64,000 nt of DNA from Candidatus Poribacteria bacterium. GTDB taxonomy: Bacteria; Poribacteria; WGA-4E; WGA-3G. The position numbers were made by a program, and so were the translations under genes. Location: the NCBI GenBank assembly GCA_965197475.1, contig CBDANF010000003.1, forward strand, positions 3,520,001 through 3,584,000, written 5' to 3'. Of the stretch, positions 2 to 6,760 are shown one piece after another. The stretch's first letter is position 1. Each line of letters starts with the position of its first letter. The notes below the pieces were generated by a model. The model was not told the DNA's origin. It ran no database searches and saw only the letters and a program-made list of their open reading frames with translations.

Positions 2-2071
2 CATACGGCTGAGGTCTATGCTGTGGCGTTCAGTCCGGATGGCAGAATAGTCGTAAGTGGGGGTTGGGACAACACAATCCGTTTGTGGGATGTCGTTACT
101 GCTGAAAACATCCACACACTCAAAGGGCATACAGCTGCGATTTCTTCCTTAGCGTTTAGTCCTGATGGGAAGATACTCGCAAGCGGAAGTTATGACCGGA
201 CTATCCGACTGTGGGATGTAGCTATTACTACAAACATTGCGACACTCACTGGGCATAAGGGTAGGGTCTTAACTGTGGCATTTAGTCCGGATGGCAAAAT
301 GGTTGCAAGTGGGAGTTGGGACGACACCGTCCGTTTTTGGGATGTAGCCACTGCTGAGAACATCAACACAATCACAGAGCATCCGGGTGATGTCTGGAGT
401 TTAGCGTTTAGCCCTGATGGCAAAACAATCGCAACTGGGGGTGAGACCCGCTATATCTATTTGTGGGATGTCGCCACTGCCGAAAAAATCAATACATTCA
501 CCCAGAGTAACCAGGGTGCCCTTAGCGTGGCATTCAGTCCTGATGGAAAAACAATCGCAAGCGGGGTTTATCCCAGGGGCATCCAACTGTGGGAAATAGC
601 CACTGCAAGAAGGATCGGTAGTTTTAGTGATACGTATCAAAAAATGAGTACGGTCGATAGTGTCGCATTCAGTCCAGACGGTAAAACAATCGCAACTGGG
701 AGTTGGGACCCTACCGTCCGTCTATGGACTATCACCAGATGTTTTAAAATCACGCCCTATCCCATAGTATCTCCCGCAATCGGTGAGAGGTTTACTATCA
801 ACATTGAAGCTGATATGGGACCAAAAGTACAGGAAGCCTATTTTAACTTATACTTTAATTCACGTGCCATTCGTTATGTTGAAACTACTGGCGGGGATTT
901 AATATATCTTTCAAGTACTTTTGAGTCGGACTTTACCTATACAACCAGCCTAGGTTTCGTAAGGTTTGAATCACGTTTTGGTCCAGGCAAAGGCACATTG
1001 GCAAAAATAACCTTTGAGGTGATTGATGTAAGAGAATCTAATATCAGATTTCAAGGCATAGGTTATATAAACACGCCCTATCTCATTTATGAAGGAAAGA
1101 TTATACCACCCGAGTTCTCCTCTCCTGCTGTTGTCAGCATTACCCCATCCGAAGTGCTGTCTCCTGCTATCGGTGAGCAACTTGTTTTTAACGTTAATAT
1201 TGCCGACGGTCAAAATGTTGCACGTTCTGAGTTAACACTGGACTATGATCAGTCCGCTCTTAAAGAGATATCGCGCAGTGAGGGAAATTATCTGTCTGGT
1301 GAGATTGGCAACGGTGACGGCACACTTGAGACGATAACATTTGAAGTTCTTGATGTCAAAGCCTCAACTGTAAGTGTCTCTGGGTATCTGGTTGCTCCAA
1401 ATGGATATCGTTATGTTCCTACCTTTCAAAGTGCAGAGGTGATTGAACCGCTTCTGGGAGATGTTAACAGAGATGGAGTCGTGAGCATCTTGGACGTGGT
1501 CCAGGTTGCATCAAGTTTGGGACAGGTTTCAGCAGGCGGAAACCCCGCAGATGTCAATGAGGATGGTGTTGTCAATATTGTAGATATGATTACAGTCGCT
1601 GGGGCGATCAATGACGCAGCTGCTGCGCCTGCAGTGTGGAATCGCTACCAAGGGGTTGCTTTTACAAGTGACCGAGTGCAAAAGTGGCTATCCCAAGCAC
1701 AACAACTGGATTTGACAGATGCAATTGCACAAAAGGGCATTCTCTTTTTAGAAAATCTCTTAGCATTGTTGACACCGAAAGAGACAGCACTTCTACCGAA
1801 TTATCCAAATCCGTTCAACCCTGAAACGTGGATACCTTATCAATTAGCAGAACCCGCAGATGTAACGATTTCCATTTACGCAGTAGATGGAACAGTGATA
1901 CGTACCCTCAACCTTGGACATAAAACTGCGGGAATCTATCATGATCAAACCCGTGCGGCATATTGGGATGGTAAAAATGAAGTCGGTGAGGCGGTTGCAA
2001 GTGGTGTCTATTTCTATACTTTAACAGCAGGCAGCTTCAACTCTACGCGGAAGATGCTGATATGGAAATAG
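2..2071 (+). CDS. WD40-repeat protein with cohesin-like, dockerin and C-terminal FlgD-Ig/T9SS-like sorting domain (5' partial)
   Basis: Six visible AFSPDG...W WD40 repeats; dockerin GDVNRDGVVSILD/ADVNEDGVVNIVD; C-terminal LLPNYPNPFNPETWIPY...GVYFYTL. Frame is open from the window start. Confidence 0.85.
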   Translation, partial: HTAEVYAVAFSPDGRIVVSGGWDNTIRLWDVVTAENIHTLKGHTAAISSLAFSPDGKILASGSYDRTIRLWDVAITTNIATLTGHKGRVLTVAFSPDGKMVASGSWDDTVRFWDVATAENINTITEHPGDVWSLAFSPDGKTIATGGETRYIYLWDVATAEKINTFTQSNQGALSVAFSPDGKTIASGVYPRGIQLWEIATARRIGSFSDTYQKMSTVDSVAFSPDGKTIATGSWDPTVRLWTITRCFKITPYPIVSPAIGERFTINIEADMGPKVQEAYFNLYFNSRAIRYVETTGGDLIYLSSTFESDFTYTTSLGFVRFESRFGPGKGTLAKITFEVIDVRESNIRFQGIGYINTPYLIYEGKIIPPEFSSPAVVSITPSEVLSPAIGEQLVFNVNIADGQNVARSELTLDYDQSALKEISRSEGNYLSGEIGNGDGTLETITFEVLDVKASTVSVSGYLVAPNGYRYVPTFQSAEVIEPLLGDVNRDGVVSILDVVQVASSLGQVSAGGNPADVNEDGVVNIVDMITVAGAINDAAAAPAVWNRYQGVAFTSDRVQKWLSQAQQLDLTDAIAQKGILFLENLLALLTPKETALLPNYPNPFNPETWIPYQLAEPADVTISIYAVDGTVIRTLNLGHKTAGIYHDQTRAAYWDGKNEVGEAVASGVYFYTLTAGSFNSTRKMLIWK

Positions 2072-2196
2072 TATCAAATGACCATAGGATATCTGGAAGG
2101 TTGATGTTTATTGGCTTCCCAGCGATCATTAATGAGTGGGTTGCGTTGGGATCGCGAGCATCCTCTTTGAGAAATGATGCGTTTAGCGATAAACGT
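2071..2196 (-). ncRNA. Candidate structured RNA (~125 nt) at the element end
   Basis: Downstream of the promoter: consecutive hairpins CGTTTA-tcgc-TAAACG, GCATC..CTCaaaGAG-GATGC and TCCCAaCG...CGcTGGGA. Expression is inferred, not shown. Confidence 0.35.
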
Positions 2197-2202
2197 GTCT
2201 AA

Positions 2203-2231
2203 AGTATAGCAAAACCAGTAGCGGTTGTCAA
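2203..2231 (-). promoter_or_regulatory. Near-consensus sigma70 promoter pointing out of the element's downstream end
   Basis: Minus strand reads TTGACA-N17-TATACT with an extended -10 TG. Confidence 0.7.
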
Positions 2232-2298
2232 CCATATTTTCAAGGCACCTGCCCCGGTTTTGCGAAGTAAAGTTCGTCGGGAACATAGGATTAGGGTC

Positions 2299-3183
2299 TC
2301 ATTGGGCTTCTCCTTGGTGAGTGGCTTCATCGTTTGAGTCTGAATTGGCAAGGTCTGCATCTATGGCTTGGAGTTGGTGCTGCGGTATGAGGTCGAGATA
2401 TTGAGAGATGACGCGTTTAGAAAGTCGTGTAATCTGTGAGATTTTATCAATATCTGCGGTTGCTTTCCGAACGACTTTGACGCTCTCATAATCGCGAATG
2501 TATCTATCAACTGCCTCCTTAGAGTGTTTGGTCTTTGCGGCAATCCTGGGGGTGAGATGTCCTTGAAGATAGAGGGTTATGATCTCTTTCTTATGGGTAA
2601 TAGCCCCCGATAAGTCATGGATATTGCCACGGGTGGGCAAGAGTTCTCCAGTGGTTTTTTGCCATTCATTAACATAATCACAGACAACGGCATCGCAGAC
2701 ATTGAGCAAAACTGCCAAGTCGAGTTGTGTCAATAATGCCCCTTGGTCATAAGCTTGATGACACCAGCGGACCAAGCGATTGATCCGCAATTGCCGGGAG
2801 GTGAAACCGTTGCGAAAGGATTCAATATCCTCTGCGGCGAGGTAAGTCAGGATGACGGGTTTCATGCGGGTTTTGACGATGGACTTTCCTCTTTCTGGAT
2901 GCTCTTCAATAGGGACGGCCATCCAAACGAGTTGTCCATAACTCAAGAAACGCTCATCCGGGAGTTGATCGCCGGTGGCGAGTTTCTCCAAAGGAAGGGT
3001 AATCACGAAATAGTCTTCAACGGTCTTAAGAATATCATCAACAATGGCGGTGGCAGTGACTTCGCCTTTGTCATAACCATAGTCATTGAGAAAGCGGTGA
3101 ATGAGCAACTGTCGTAGGGACTTATCGTTGATGCGTCTGAATTTCTTCTCGTTGATTTGCGTGCGGGTTAGAGGTTTGCTCAT
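2299..3183 (-). CDS. DUF1670-like protein (paralog B)
   Basis: AYDQGALLTQLDLAVLL, TRGNIHD, THKKEII and HSKEAVDRY motifs; start overlaps the stop of paralog A (ATGA). Confidence 0.75.
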   Translation of the reverse strand: MSKPLTRTQINEKKFRRINDKSLRQLLIHRFLNDYGYDKGEVTATAIVDDILKTVEDYFVITLPLEKLATGDQLPDERFLSYGQLVWMAVPIEEHPERGKSIVKTRMKPVILTYLAAEDIESFRNGFTSRQLRINRLVRWCHQAYDQGALLTQLDLAVLLNVCDAVVCDYVNEWQKTTGELLPTRGNIHDLSGAITHKKEIITLYLQGHLTPRIAAKTKHSKEAVDRYIRDYESVKVVRKATADIDKISQITRLSKRVISQYLDLIPQHQLQAIDADLANSDSNDEATHQGEAQ

Positions 3184-3980
3184 GAGAGGTCCCCCTTTTT
3201 TGTGTCCTCAGGTTCTGGGTGAAGGAGTTGGGTCATGCGATCTGTGTGTTGGTATTCCTCATAGAGTGAGAGATACTCGCGGATCAACCGGTCAGATAGA
3301 TGGGTGATCAGGCGTATCTGTGCGTTAGGAAAGCCTTGATGATGGAGCGTAGCGACTTGTGTAAAGTCTTTCAAGTAGCGGTAGACAGCTCGTTCGCTGT
3401 GGTTCGTCTTTTTCTCGATTTCGGTGAAGGTATAGGCTTTGAAATATAACTCCAGGACCTGGGTTTTATGAGAAGTGCCGGGGCCCATGTCGTGTTTCGT
3501 CCCGCGCGTCATAACGAAATACCCATCCTGCTTCAAGTGTCGAATGTCGCGTTTGACTGTAGCAGGACTGGTGGTTAATAATACAGCTAAATCCTCGTAG
3601 CTCAGTAAGGCATCTTGGTCATAAGCTTCTTGGGTCAATCGGAGGATCCGATGCCGTCTGAGTCCTGCGAGACCATAATTCGCTAAGACTTCAAGATCGG
3701 CGTTTGTGTCATTGAGAGTTAGCCGACAGGAAACTTTTTTCGCTAAAGCGATATGTTTACCTGCGGGTTCCTCTGCGGCGACTGCCTCGTAGCAGATTTG
3801 CCCTGATGTCAGGTGCACATCGGCGTGTTGTTCAAAGTAGGTGGAAATCTGTTTATAGTAGGCTTCAGCAACGAGAGGCATTAGATTAAAGTCTGCTGAA
3901 ATCTTCTGAATAATCGCGGCTCTGGCATTCTTGGATTCGAGCCGAGTGATACCGTAAGCGGTATCCTTCTTGCGGTTCAT
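3180..3980 (-). CDS. DUF1670-like protein (paralog A)
   Basis: AYDQDALLSYEDLAVLL, TRGTKHD, SHKTQV and HSERAVYRY motifs; GGAGG RBS before ATG at 3980. Confidence 0.75.
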   Translation of the reverse strand: MNRKKDTAYGITRLESKNARAAIIQKISADFNLMPLVAEAYYKQISTYFEQHADVHLTSGQICYEAVAAEEPAGKHIALAKKVSCRLTLNDTNADLEVLANYGLAGLRRHRILRLTQEAYDQDALLSYEDLAVLLTTSPATVKRDIRHLKQDGYFVMTRGTKHDMGPGTSHKTQVLELYFKAYTFTEIEKKTNHSERAVYRYLKDFTQVATLHHQGFPNAQIRLITHLSDRLIREYLSLYEEYQHTDRMTQLLHPEPEDTKKGDLS

Positions 3981-4120
3981 ATCGACCTCCATGAATAGAT
4001 TATCGGGGATCCGAGGACATCTACTCGTTAGTTTAACGAATACTAATAGTATAACTCATGGGGTCATTTGATACAAACTATAAGTAAACTCCACTCATTA
4101 AACAAGCAGGAGAAACATTA

Positions 4121-4708
4121 ATGGACATCTTGCATAGCGTTCGTAATGCGCTGTTAGATGCACAGGACGTGCTTAATCGGTTTATCCAAAACCCTGACAA
4201 TATCGCAATCATTGCCGAAACAGCAGCCCTGATGCGAGACGTTTTTGAACAGCAGGGAAGAATCTTTACGTGTGGCAATGGTGGCAGTTTGTGCGATGCC
4301 ATCCACTTTGCAGAAGAGTGCACCGGAAAGTTTCGGGATAATCGGAAACCTCTTCCTGTTATTGCGCTAAGCGATGCAGGGCATATCACCTGCACAGCAA
4401 ACGATTTCGGGTTTGCGGAGGTGTTCGCTCGTCCACTGCTGGCACTTGGACACCCCGGTGATCTGTTAGTGGCACTCTCAACAAGTGGTAATTCGGAAAA
4501 TGTTGTTCGTGCGGCTGAAGCAGCAAAATCACGACAGATGCACGTGTTCGGGTTGATCGGTAGAGATGGCGGAAGGCTCAAACACCATTGTAATACTTAC
4601 CTAATTGCGCCTGGTGATACCGCAGATCGGATACAGGAAATCCATATTAAGGTATTACATATTTTGATTGAGCATATTGAACGACTAATGTTTCCTGAGA
4701 ATTATTGA
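4121..4708 (+). CDS. gmhA: D-sedoheptulose-7-phosphate isomerase
   Basis: SIS motifs CGNGGS, ANDFG, STSGNSENV, RIQEIH. Confidence 0.9.
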   Translation: MDILHSVRNALLDAQDVLNRFIQNPDNIAIIAETAALMRDVFEQQGRIFTCGNGGSLCDAIHFAEECTGKFRDNRKPLPVIALSDAGHITCTANDFGFAEVFARPLLALGHPGDLLVALSTSGNSENVVRAAEAAKSRQMHVFGLIGRDGGRLKHHCNTYLIAPGDTADRIQEIHIKVLHILIEHIERLMFPENY

Positions 4709-4792: not shown

Positions 4793-5068
4793 TTGGCAAC
4801 TTCAAATAAACACCGGGCATATTGGCGGAAAAATCTACAATATCTCGCTATTCTACTCGGAATTTGGTTTATTACATCGTATCTATGCTCAATTGTTTTT
4901 GTCGAACAACTTGACAAAATTCAATTCGGTGGGTTGCGCCTCGGCTTCTATTTTGCACAGCAAGCATCTATATGGATTTTTGTTGTACTGATTTTTGTCT
5001 ACGCATGGTTGATGAACCGTTTAGATAAAAAATATCAGGCTGATCGTGATGCGGAGGATTCTGAATAA
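4793..5068 (+). CDS. Sodium:solute symporter small subunit (DUF4212/DUF485-like)
   Basis: YWRKNL...GFYFAQQ...MNRLDKKY; two TM helices; adjacent to an SSS gene. Confidence 0.8.
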
Positions 5069-5070
5069 AC

Positions 5071-6760
5071 ATGAGTGTACAAGCCTGGACTTTCGTAATG
5101 GTTGGCCTCACCTTTGCATTGTATATCGGACTTGCGGTCTGGTCCAGAGCACGTTCAACAGGGGACTTCTATGTTGCTGGCAGCAACGTGCATCCGGTTG
5201 TGAACGGATGGCAACAGCGGCGGATTGGATGAGTGCTGCATCCTTCATCTCAATGGCAGGACTCATTTCGTTTATGGGACGCGACGGATCCGTCTACCTG
5301 CTTGGATGGACCGGCGGATATGTGTTACTTGCACTGCTATTGGCACCCTACCTCCGTAAATTCGGTAAGTATACCGTGCCCGATTTTGTCGGTGATCGGT
5401 ATTATTCACAGTTGGCACGGGTTGTTGCTGTTGTGTGCGCTGTGTTTGTCTCATTTACCTACGTCGCAGGACAGATGCGCGGTGTCGGTATTGTCTTTTC
5501 CCGGTTTCTGAATGTCAATATTACAATAGGTGTACTGATAGGCATGGGGATTGTGTTCTTTTATGCTGTCCTCGGAGGGATGAAAGGCATTACCTACACG
5601 CAGGTTGCACAATATTGTGTCCTCATGTTTGCTTACCTCGTGCCTGCTATTTTCATCTCAATCTTAATTACCGGCAACCCTATTCCCAGTTGGGATTGGG
5701 CGCAGCAGATAATACAGGCGTGTACCTCTTAGACCGCCTCAACGGACTGCACGAAGCACTCGGTTTTGATCGGTACACTGATGGAAGCAAATCTACGATT
5801 GATGTCTTTTTCATTACGGCTGCCCTAATGTTAGGAACAGCCGGACTTCCGCACGTGATTATCCGTTTCTACACAGTCCGAAAAGCTTCAGAAGCAAGGA
5901 TTTCTGCAGGATGGGCATTACTATTTATTGCACTGCTCTATACAACTGCCCCCGCAGTAGCAATCTTTGCACGAACTAATCTCCTCAATACTGTAACTTC
6001 TGAACAGGATGGCGAATTAATAGATGTCAAATATCAGGACGTGCCAGAGTGGTTTAAGAATTGGGAAGCGATTAAACTTATTACGTTTAACGATTTAAAC
6101 GGTGATGGTGCAATTCAGTACCGTGGACCAAAATCCGATGTAGAGAATGAACTCGAAATTGACAGGGACATCATGGTGTTGGCGAATCCGGAAATCGCGA
6201 AACTTCCGAATTGGATTGTAGGATTAGTTGCAGCGGGTGGCTTGGCAGCCGCTTTGTTTACAGCGGCCGGACTTCTTTTAGTTATCTCAACTGCTATTGC
6301 CCATGACTTACTTAAAGGTTGTATTGTCCGAGATTTATCAGAGAAAAACGAATTGACCGCAGCACGAATCGCAGCCGGTTTTGCGGTCTGCATCACAGGC
6401 TATTTTGGTATCAACCCACCCGGATTTGTAGGACAAGTCGTCGCATTTGCTTTTGGACTCGCTGCAAGTTCATTTTTCCCCGCAATCGTCATGGGAATTT
6501 TCTCTAAGCGGATGAACAAAGCTGGCGCAGTAACAGGAATGATTGTCGGTATCACTTTTACAGCAGCGTATATCATCTTTTTCAAATTTATAGAACCCGA
6601 TCTTAACAAGCCAGAGCATTGGCTATGGGGCATATCCCCTGAAGGAATCGGTACTCTCGGCATGGTGTTAAATTTTATTGTTGCTACTACCGTATCTGCT
6701 TTCACGCCGCCTCCACCTGAAGAGGTGCAAGCAATGGTTGAAGAAATTCGAGTTCCCTAA
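5071..6760 (+). CDS. actP: Cation/acetate symporter ActP-like (SSS family), two apparent frameshifts (~5207, ~5688)
   Basis: MSVQAWT...FYVAG / [13 protein letters not shown] / [15 protein letters not shown] lie in three successive frames. Confidence 0.75.

Follow-up and report, generated by a model that had tools for sequence, protein, structure and literature searches.

A conserved outward promoter at one end of a two-gene DUF1670 element in Poribacteria looks regulatory rather than guide-encoding

Why should a mobile element keep a near-consensus promoter beyond its last gene, pointing out of the element? The question is raised by a 64,000-nucleotide stretch of a Candidatus Poribacteria genome (GCA_965197475.1, contig CBDANF010000003.1, positions 3,520,001 to 3,584,000; hereafter the window, in which all positions are counted from its first letter). 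Within it, an insertion sequence (IS)-like element of 2,014 bp (2068-4081) carries two genes for helix-turn-helix proteins of the DUF1670 family (PF07900), and the segment 2068-2231 forms its downstream non-coding end. A sequence-only reading of this segment had offered two options for the promoter found there: transcription of an element-encoded RNA cofactor, or expression of the genes only once the ends of the element are joined. The analysis described here leads to the view that the promoter, termed Pout, looks like an element-level outward promoter that is regulatory rather than one that makes a guide RNA. That it drives both DUF1670 genes upon end joining, at a junction or in a tandem, is a plausible reading of the combined analyses that stops somewhat short of probable.

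Pout lies on the minus strand and consists of the −35 hexamer TTGACA (2226-2231, located by consensus scan) and the extended −10 element TGcTATACT (2203-2211, with TG at 2211-2210 and TATACT at 2208-2203), separated by a 17-nt spacer. The sequence-only reading had given this promoter correctly (2231-2203). It scores 11 of 12 consensus positions plus the TG, is the top site in 1900-4300 and displays every sequence feature of a sigma-70 promoter with an extended −10. The pattern TTGACA-N16-18-TATAMT has a single match in the 64-kb window against 0.06 expected, and at least one match was obtained in 6 of 100 shuffles. Its placement downstream of both open reading frames (ORF A, 3992-3180; ORF B, 3183-2299) was likewise upheld: Pout overlaps neither and faces the terminal repeat at 2071-2083. 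Outside the ORFs, it is the sole coding-strand site scoring at least 9/12 in two diverged subfamilies of the element, and the consensus scan returned no site of that score upstream of ORF A in either subfamily. A minus-strand search between Pout and the tip of the element, in the window copy and in the diverged element L023, gave no terminator-like site. The predicted transcribed leader, about 130 nt long, would thus run from a start near 2196-2199, placed by its distance from the −10, to the tip (2068-2198).

Comparison with relatives provides the main argument that Pout is more than a chance match. PF07900 genes are present in 11 of 41 related genomes; full elements from four genomes of the window's genus share 88-92% identity with the copy studied here, and elements from three genomes in two other families show ~76% identity in the ORFs and 41-59% in the surrounding non-coding DNA. 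Among 23 distinct ends from five genera, the TG is found in all 23, TATACT in 22 and a TTGACA-like −35 at 17-18 nt in 20; of the three exceptions, two are deleted or degenerate derivatives and one is an element whose −35 is poor. The −10 of these ends lies 134-138 nt from the tip, and all 11 full elements place the TG 146-147 nt from the tip, while other spacers vary by 7-65 nt (5′ untranslated region, 71 or 89 nt; ORF B stop to TG, 80-145 nt). On a wider scale, a 16-nt end motif occurs with at most one mismatch in 121 of 176 Poribacteria genomes, and TATACT stands 112-128 nt upstream of the exact motif in 39 of the 176, from six genera (reversed control, 0). In L023, the best coding-strand site is again of this kind, TTGGCA-17-TATACT with TG (10/12). 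These comparisons show Pout to be a genuine-looking predicted promoter, conserved in evolution at a fixed distance from the tip. Deletion derivatives and ends resembling miniature inverted-repeat transposable elements (MITEs) have lost the promoter and kept the terminal 25-70 nt, and Pout is therefore apparently not needed in cis for end recognition.

The architecture of the ends defines what Pout faces. The element has the layout of a two-gene DUF1670 (PF07900) element, a tandem gene pair between terminal inverted repeats, present in multiple copies. Its ORF A (270 aa, 3180-3992, minus strand; PF07900 E 4e-62) ends in a stop that overlaps the start of ORF B (ATGA; 294 aa, 2299-3183, minus strand; E 1.2e-61). 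A perfect 13-nt inverted repeat lies at 2071-2083/4062-4074, and 2071 had been taken as the end; relatives in other genomes correct this, with real termini of ATAG...CTAT and AA (TT in element orientation) flanking both sides, which place the tip at 2068 (or 2066). The 3′ terminal inverted repeat is thus ATAGTATCAAATGACC (plus strand as written, 2068-2083) and the 5′ repeat GGTCATTTGATACAAACTAT (plus strand, 4062-4081), the latter identical at 20 of 20 positions between subfamilies. Reading of the sequence around the 5′ repeat also gave a weak candidate inward promoter on the minus strand, TTGTAT (4076-4071), 17 nt, TATACT (4053-4048), which at 8/12 falls under the scan threshold and hence went unreported by the promoter scans; the second subfamily has a TAAACT hexamer.

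When the two ends are compared by eye, the 5′ end reads repeat-CCATGAG and the 3′ end CTCAT, palindrome, repeat, and for this reason the palindrome looks like an insertion that split a longer terminal repeat. CTCAT (2132-2136, minus strand) would be the inner half of the split repeat; it matches, by eye, CATGAG beside the 5′ repeat, and its columns are nearly invariant in two alignments of ends (A4 and A5). Between the two halves of the 3′ repeat lies the imperfect palindrome (2088-2127; arms 2088-2100 and 2115-2127, loop 2101-2114), and an inner copy of the terminal motif (CTCAT..GAT) is found ~58 nt inside the tip. The segment 2068-2231 may accordingly be described as a predicted promoter, a putative fast-evolving leader stretch of ~60 nt, and presumptive end-recognition DNA composed of inner half-repeat, ~40-nt imperfect palindrome and outer terminal repeat.

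BLAST of the window's own genome with 2071-4074 retrieved 22 places that correspond to 20 insertions, 18 of them full length (92-100% identity), one internally deleted and one MITE-like, which retains 151 nt of the Pout-side end and 286 nt of the opposite end. These copies diverge in mosaic fashion: several carry 77-98 differences over 809 positions of ORF A as against 0-6 over the 228 of the 3′ non-coding end; in one, the differences fall chiefly in ORF B (54/885). Such a pattern suggests recombination or conversion between element lineages. In a MITE-like copy of another genome (L160, G134), the 5′ end, up to and including its TATACT, runs straight into the TATACT of Pout, as a deletion between the two identical hexamers would leave it.

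The DNA into which Pout points is the end of a host gene. This gene (2-2071, plus strand) encodes WD40 repeats and a type IX secretion system (T9SS) type A C-terminal sorting domain (TIGR04183, 34.7 bits versus a cut-off of 23; PF13860, FlgD_ig, 35.2 versus 27). AA at 2066-2067 forms the left copy of a putative 2-bp target duplication, and the displaced original Lys-stop of the gene, AAG TAA, follows the element (4082-4087, plus strand), its first AA being the right copy. At locus L094, the orthologous site is empty and reads ...CTG AAG TAA, with the downstream gene of the window next to it; the AA of the last Lys codon was thus evidently the point of insertion. Together with this AA, element bases 2068-2071 restore the Lys codon and supply a TAG stop, which leaves the host protein unchanged. 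The 20 insertions in the genome are much alike in this respect, with AAATA before GTATC on the left in 20 of 20 and the right repeat followed by AAACTAT, a Lys codon (AAR) and a stop codon in 19 of 20. In a separate case, an orthologue of the target gene in another species (L086/L033, G002) bears a degraded remnant of the 3′ part of the element (~83% identity) at the same gene end.

The sorting-domain C-terminal module is highly repeated per genome in the window's genus. Among 67 distinct 3′ flanks collected across genomes, class T1, in which the flank is the end of a sorting-domain gene in antisense, accounts for 46, and class T2, in which it is the loop of a palindromic repeat, for 11; the remaining 10 are other sequences, 5 of which, judged by eye, are also gene ends. 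Copies of the T2 repeat number 70, 42, 28, 23 and 1 in five genomes, the single copy being in the window's genome. The T2 sites of other genera have a 13-bp stem and a TTCTTC-like loop (L023, L034, L035, L042 and L044-L051; G035, G060, G062 and G065).

The function that we tentatively favor is one in which Pout would serve the element itself. In an integrated copy, the DUF1670 genes would have at best the weak promoter that overlaps the 5′ repeat, and outward reading from Pout would cover the 3′ end of the host sorting-domain gene in antisense. Once the ends abut, in a circle or a tandem, Pout would lie ~225 nt upstream of ORF A and could raise the expression of both proteins. The logic would be that of IS2/IS3-type junction promoters, with the difference that the whole promoter resides inside one end. 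The anatomy to be expected of such activation, an outward promoter downstream of the genes and a weak one upstream, fits what the sequence displays.

Several points weigh against junction activation. Abutted termini with a gap of 0-12 nt were found in 0 of 176 genomes, and no joints were present in contigs from four RNA libraries of three studies; both negatives are weak evidence, as contigs drop rare forms and transient circles are not expected in assemblies. The RNA-library contigs cover 2063-2231 but carry no information on strand, start or level. Their depth over the element exceeds that of the flank ~10-36 fold in bin 2063-2135, which is on the order of the copy number and does not show transcription. 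Repeat or variant boundaries of the assembly graph offer the simplest explanation for contigs that end at 2066 and 2196. The circular intermediate is itself an assumption, given that the DUF1670 proteins have no recognized catalytic fold, and a leader crossing the junction would carry a 13-bp hairpin formed by both terminal repeats. Furthermore, a complete promoter ~135 nt inside one end is not a classical hybrid junction promoter. Finally, junction activation does not require a constant leader length, which is the observation least explained by the favored model and hints at a further constraint, either a DNA end architecture or an RNA of defined size.

An alternative that we regard as unlikely holds that Pout is a read-out promoter, whose antisense transcripts into the flanking host gene either shield the element or are a tolerated by-product. 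The 46 T1 flanks all present the gene end in one orientation, and because the orientation of insertion is always the same, Pout always faces the T1 gene. With no terminator ahead of the tip, transcripts could pass into that gene, and RNA-library contigs, although strandless, do extend from the tip into gene ends (loose ends at 2043-2066). Shielding of the element end and its genes from incoming host transcription is conceivable, since the element inserts upstream of the terminator of the host gene and converges with that gene; on the plus strand of 2066-2300, no intrinsic terminator against incoming host transcription was found. However, the elements of the palindromic-repeat class (11 of the 67 flanks) and those at other sites keep the same promoter, and a benefit at the level of the host seldom conserves a promoter across lineages.

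A second alternative, which strikes us as improbable, returns to the RNA cofactor of the sequence-only reading: a transcript of ~130 nt that ends at or near the tip would bind the DUF1670 proteins as scaffold or guide for transposition, in the manner of the right-end bridge RNAs of IS1111-group elements or of omega RNA. In its favor are the conserved promoter and constant transcript length, proteins that lack a recognizable catalytic domain, insertion that is specific for both site and orientation, and the precedent of the IS1111 group, whose RNA lies in the right end (PMC11208160). The leader also contains conserved blocks (ATTTCTYRAAG, CCAAC and CTCAT), and the terminal imperfect palindrome recurs: 11 of the 12 other leaders, all but L064, form it as a hairpin in their minimum free energy (MFE) or centroid fold.

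The consecutive hairpins that had been read from the window copy exist as complementary words, but the fold of the window leader (2197-2066, 132 nt; MFE −24.2 kcal/mol, z −1.71) is little better than those of shuffled sequences, of which 12 in 200 fold equally well, and the MFE structure uses GCAUC/GAUGC and CUC/GAG, not the third proposed helix, TCCCA.CG/CG.TGGGA. The 12 other leaders range in z from −3.68 to +0.47: all four from the window's genus lie at −2.45 to −3.68, but all eight from other lineages behave like shuffles (−1.89 to +0.47). The inner palindrome TCATTAATGA is likewise real in the window copy and is found in 7 of the 20 own-genome copies, but the remaining 13 have TCGTTGATGA (plus strand), a non-palindromic sequence.

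Across homologues, the case for a structured RNA weakens further. No consensus fold emerged from RNAalifold on sequence-based (MAFFT) leader alignments, with −0.92 kcal/mol for 13 sequences, −2.62 for 23 and −0.3 for 61 distinct homologues. When the three hairpins were imposed on the 13 homologues, 74.7% of cells were paired versus 68.3% after shuffling, and the third helix, 64% paired, is broken in the second subfamily; the window-derived fold with a terminal stem paired 80.0% of cells in the 61 leaders versus 78.1%. Covariation across homologous ends, which had been suggested as a check, was sought on the 61 leaders and stayed at the level of shuffles (7 double-change pairs versus 6.9, with 274 of 500 shuffles reaching 7). 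Conservation across homologous elements therefore came out divided, with the promoter retained and the structure not. Between subfamilies, identity is 47-59% in the leader and 49-55% at third codon positions, as against 82-91% at first and second positions, 62-66% in the promoter block and 90-100% in the terminal repeats; judged by these alignments, divergence of the leader is close to that of third codon positions, near neutral. A comparison of 1900-4300 with Rfam gave no match at E ≤ 1. Small ORFs of 10-17 aa within the leader were considered as well and were set aside, as by eye they are not conserved between subfamilies.

A guide function fares no better. An ungapped profile of the 46 T1 flanks, run over 23 leaders on both strands, gave no significant match in any (0 of 23), in agreement with the earlier remark that no convincing match linked the loops to the target site. 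The loop of the terminal palindrome, which by eye resembles the target (ATCAGCAT), was rejected as a mimic, since 18-222 of 300 shuffles score as well. Leaders that differ at few positions occupy T1 in some genomes and T2 in others, with near-identical pairs across the two classes (G062 versus G026/G035; G040 versus G060), and a leader can thus stay nearly the same between unrelated target classes, against the suggested covariation of leader and insertion site. In many genomes, MITE-like ends retain only the last 25-70 nt and are still in T1, and the leader segment is absent from these ends as well as from the compact relatives described below. Judged by these alignments and ungapped scans, the leader neither is a conserved structured RNA nor encodes the target. 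The case also serves as a caution, in that a strong promoter followed by hairpins in a single copy failed as a structured RNA when set against 61 homologues.

Comparably doubtful is a third alternative, in which the last 150 bp act solely as DNA, as spaced sites for the two helix-turn-helix proteins or a host bending protein; the promoter-like hexamers would then be part of, or regulated by, the nucleoprotein complex, and transcription would be incidental. Both proteins are predicted winged-helix and helix-turn-helix DNA binders, and this alternative would accommodate the constant length and the recurrence of the terminal motif ~58 nt from the tip. The arms of the terminal palindrome, moreover, are conserved in sequence without covariation: in the 23 sequences of alignment A4, 76% are paired versus 22-41% with a slid partner, and there are 2 double-change pairs versus 2.5 in shuffles. 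Nevertheless, the match to the sigma-70 consensus, with TG and 17-18-nt spacing, is better than a binding site needs, and MITE-like ends keep 25-70 nt only. A final and very improbable alternative is that the outward transcript is the RNA partner and, having run past the tip, uses the antisense of the donor's own flank to lead the complex to paralogous flanks (the ends of further sorting-domain genes, or the palindromic repeat at its other places), which if true would explain orientation-specific targeting, the location of the conserved target part always on the Pout side, and the use of different target families by near-identical elements without an internal guide.

What the two proteins themselves do is relevant to each of these readings. 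ORF A and ORF B match PF07900 and several helix-turn-helix families, with no others, and NCBIfam returned nothing over its cut-off. The AlphaFold2 model of ORF B (mean confidence score, pLDDT, 84) gave nothing at E ≤ 0.001 in a Foldseek search against the PDB; VIA-align recovered only winged-helix (126-192) and sigma-region-4/LuxR-like (195-274) folds at Z ~5-6 (best 6.2), and an Atlas search gave helix-turn-helix clusters with a best score of 0.81. A PDB sequence search yielded a single weak match, named ‘CAP repeat’. Thus, no catalytic fold was recognized in the DUF1670 proteins by Foldseek, VIA-align or PDB sequence search. Across 34 diverse homologues, a PTRGxxHDxGxxxTHK motif and H220/Y228 show little or no variation. 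Fused modules also exist among relatives, in the form of proteins of 930-950 aa with three DUF1670 stretches or of ~520 aa with two (P0133, P0135, P0141 and P0143).

Scanning of species-representative genomes with a degenerate motif identified 44 loci in many bacterial and archaeal phyla, at which DUF1670 genes almost always occur as tandem pairs; tblastn against plasmids gave no match. Those relatives whose ends were found are compact, measuring 1.66-1.76 kb; 35-75 nt separate ORF B from the terminal repeat, and the repeat cores are related to that of the window element (CAAATGACC; TAGTATCAAATGA). Because such elements have no room for it, the module of promoter and leader would be a lineage-specific addition, not core machinery. 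The compact relatives (L100-L143) come from Chloroflexota, Ignavibacteriota, Neomarinimicrobiota, Verrucomicrobiota, ANME and Methanosarcinaceae archaea, Thermoplasmatota and others; the core CAAATGACC is common to their terminal repeats, and many of the loci are on contigs that barely exceed one element. In two Chloroflexota relatives (L139, ~5365-5440; L108, ~1724-1800), the stretch from ORF B to the terminal repeat holds a strong hairpin of 15-16 bp, in which the two loci differ in an apparently compensatory way; both flanks are similar between the genomes. Elsewhere in the window, a solute-symporter-like gene (5046-6760) is split over three overlapping frames (5071-5232, 5046-5732 and 5435-6760), which could reflect frameshifts or sequencing errors.

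A literature search on DUF1670 (PF07900, IPR012914) found no paper in the library searched, and the mobile-element family appears to be undescribed. Outward promoters of ISs are already known; in this apparently undescribed two-protein family, one is kept at a fixed distance from the tip. DUF1670 elements occur across many bacterial and archaeal phyla, and according to the models their two proteins show DNA-binding folds only. The role of Pout, be it junction expression, antisense read-out or an RNA partner, offers a practical entry point to the mechanism of DUF1670 transposition.

Among known systems, the closest in logic are the junction promoters of the IS2/IS911 type. In IS2, a weak end promoter serves step I and a strong promoter formed at the abutted ends serves step II (PMC3219604). 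The likeness lies in the weak integrated promoter and the outward element in the downstream end. The IS2/IS911 promoter, however, is a hybrid, with −35 and −10 in opposite ends at the tips, whereas Pout is complete and lies 134-138 nt inside one end; moreover, the DUF1670 proteins are not DDE transposases, and no junction was seen in the 176 genomes and four RNA-library contig sets.

The IS110/IS1111 elements resemble the DUF1670 element in having a non-coding end with a sigma-70 promoter and in inserting into repeated palindromes (PMC11208160; PMC12288879). The bridge RNA of those elements has its sigma-70 promoter in that non-coding end, lies on the right in the IS1111 group, and was discovered by modelling structures and by its covariation with target and donor (PMC11208160). 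A conserved fold and target/donor covariation thus characterize bridge RNAs, and neither was found here, by simpler tests. The proteins differ as well, with a DEDD (RuvC-like) plus Tnp-domain serine recombinase in IS110/IS1111 and helix-turn-helix DUF1670 proteins here. Given the negative structure and target tests and the unrelated proteins, the DUF1670 element does not belong to the bridge-RNA systems. The omega RNA of IS200/IS605 elements, for its part, overlaps the 3′ end of the TnpB/IscB gene, and ORF A and ORF B contain no such domain.

Complete promoters near an end and directed outward, as Pout is, are known from IS10 (pOUT), ISEcp1 and ISAba1. The pOUT promoter of IS10 overlaps the 5′ end of the transposase gene and makes an antisense regulator; Pout, in contrast, lies beyond the 3′ end of the genes. 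With respect to target choice, ISs that target repetitive extragenic palindromic sequences (IS1397, ISPpu9 and ISPpu10) offer a parallel to the subset of related elements that sit in the loop of a multicopy palindromic repeat. Unlike these, all 20 copies in the window's genome sit elsewhere, mostly at the Lys-stop of sorting-domain genes, where the element inserts, to the nucleotide, at the end of genes for secreted proteins and rebuilds the stop codon.

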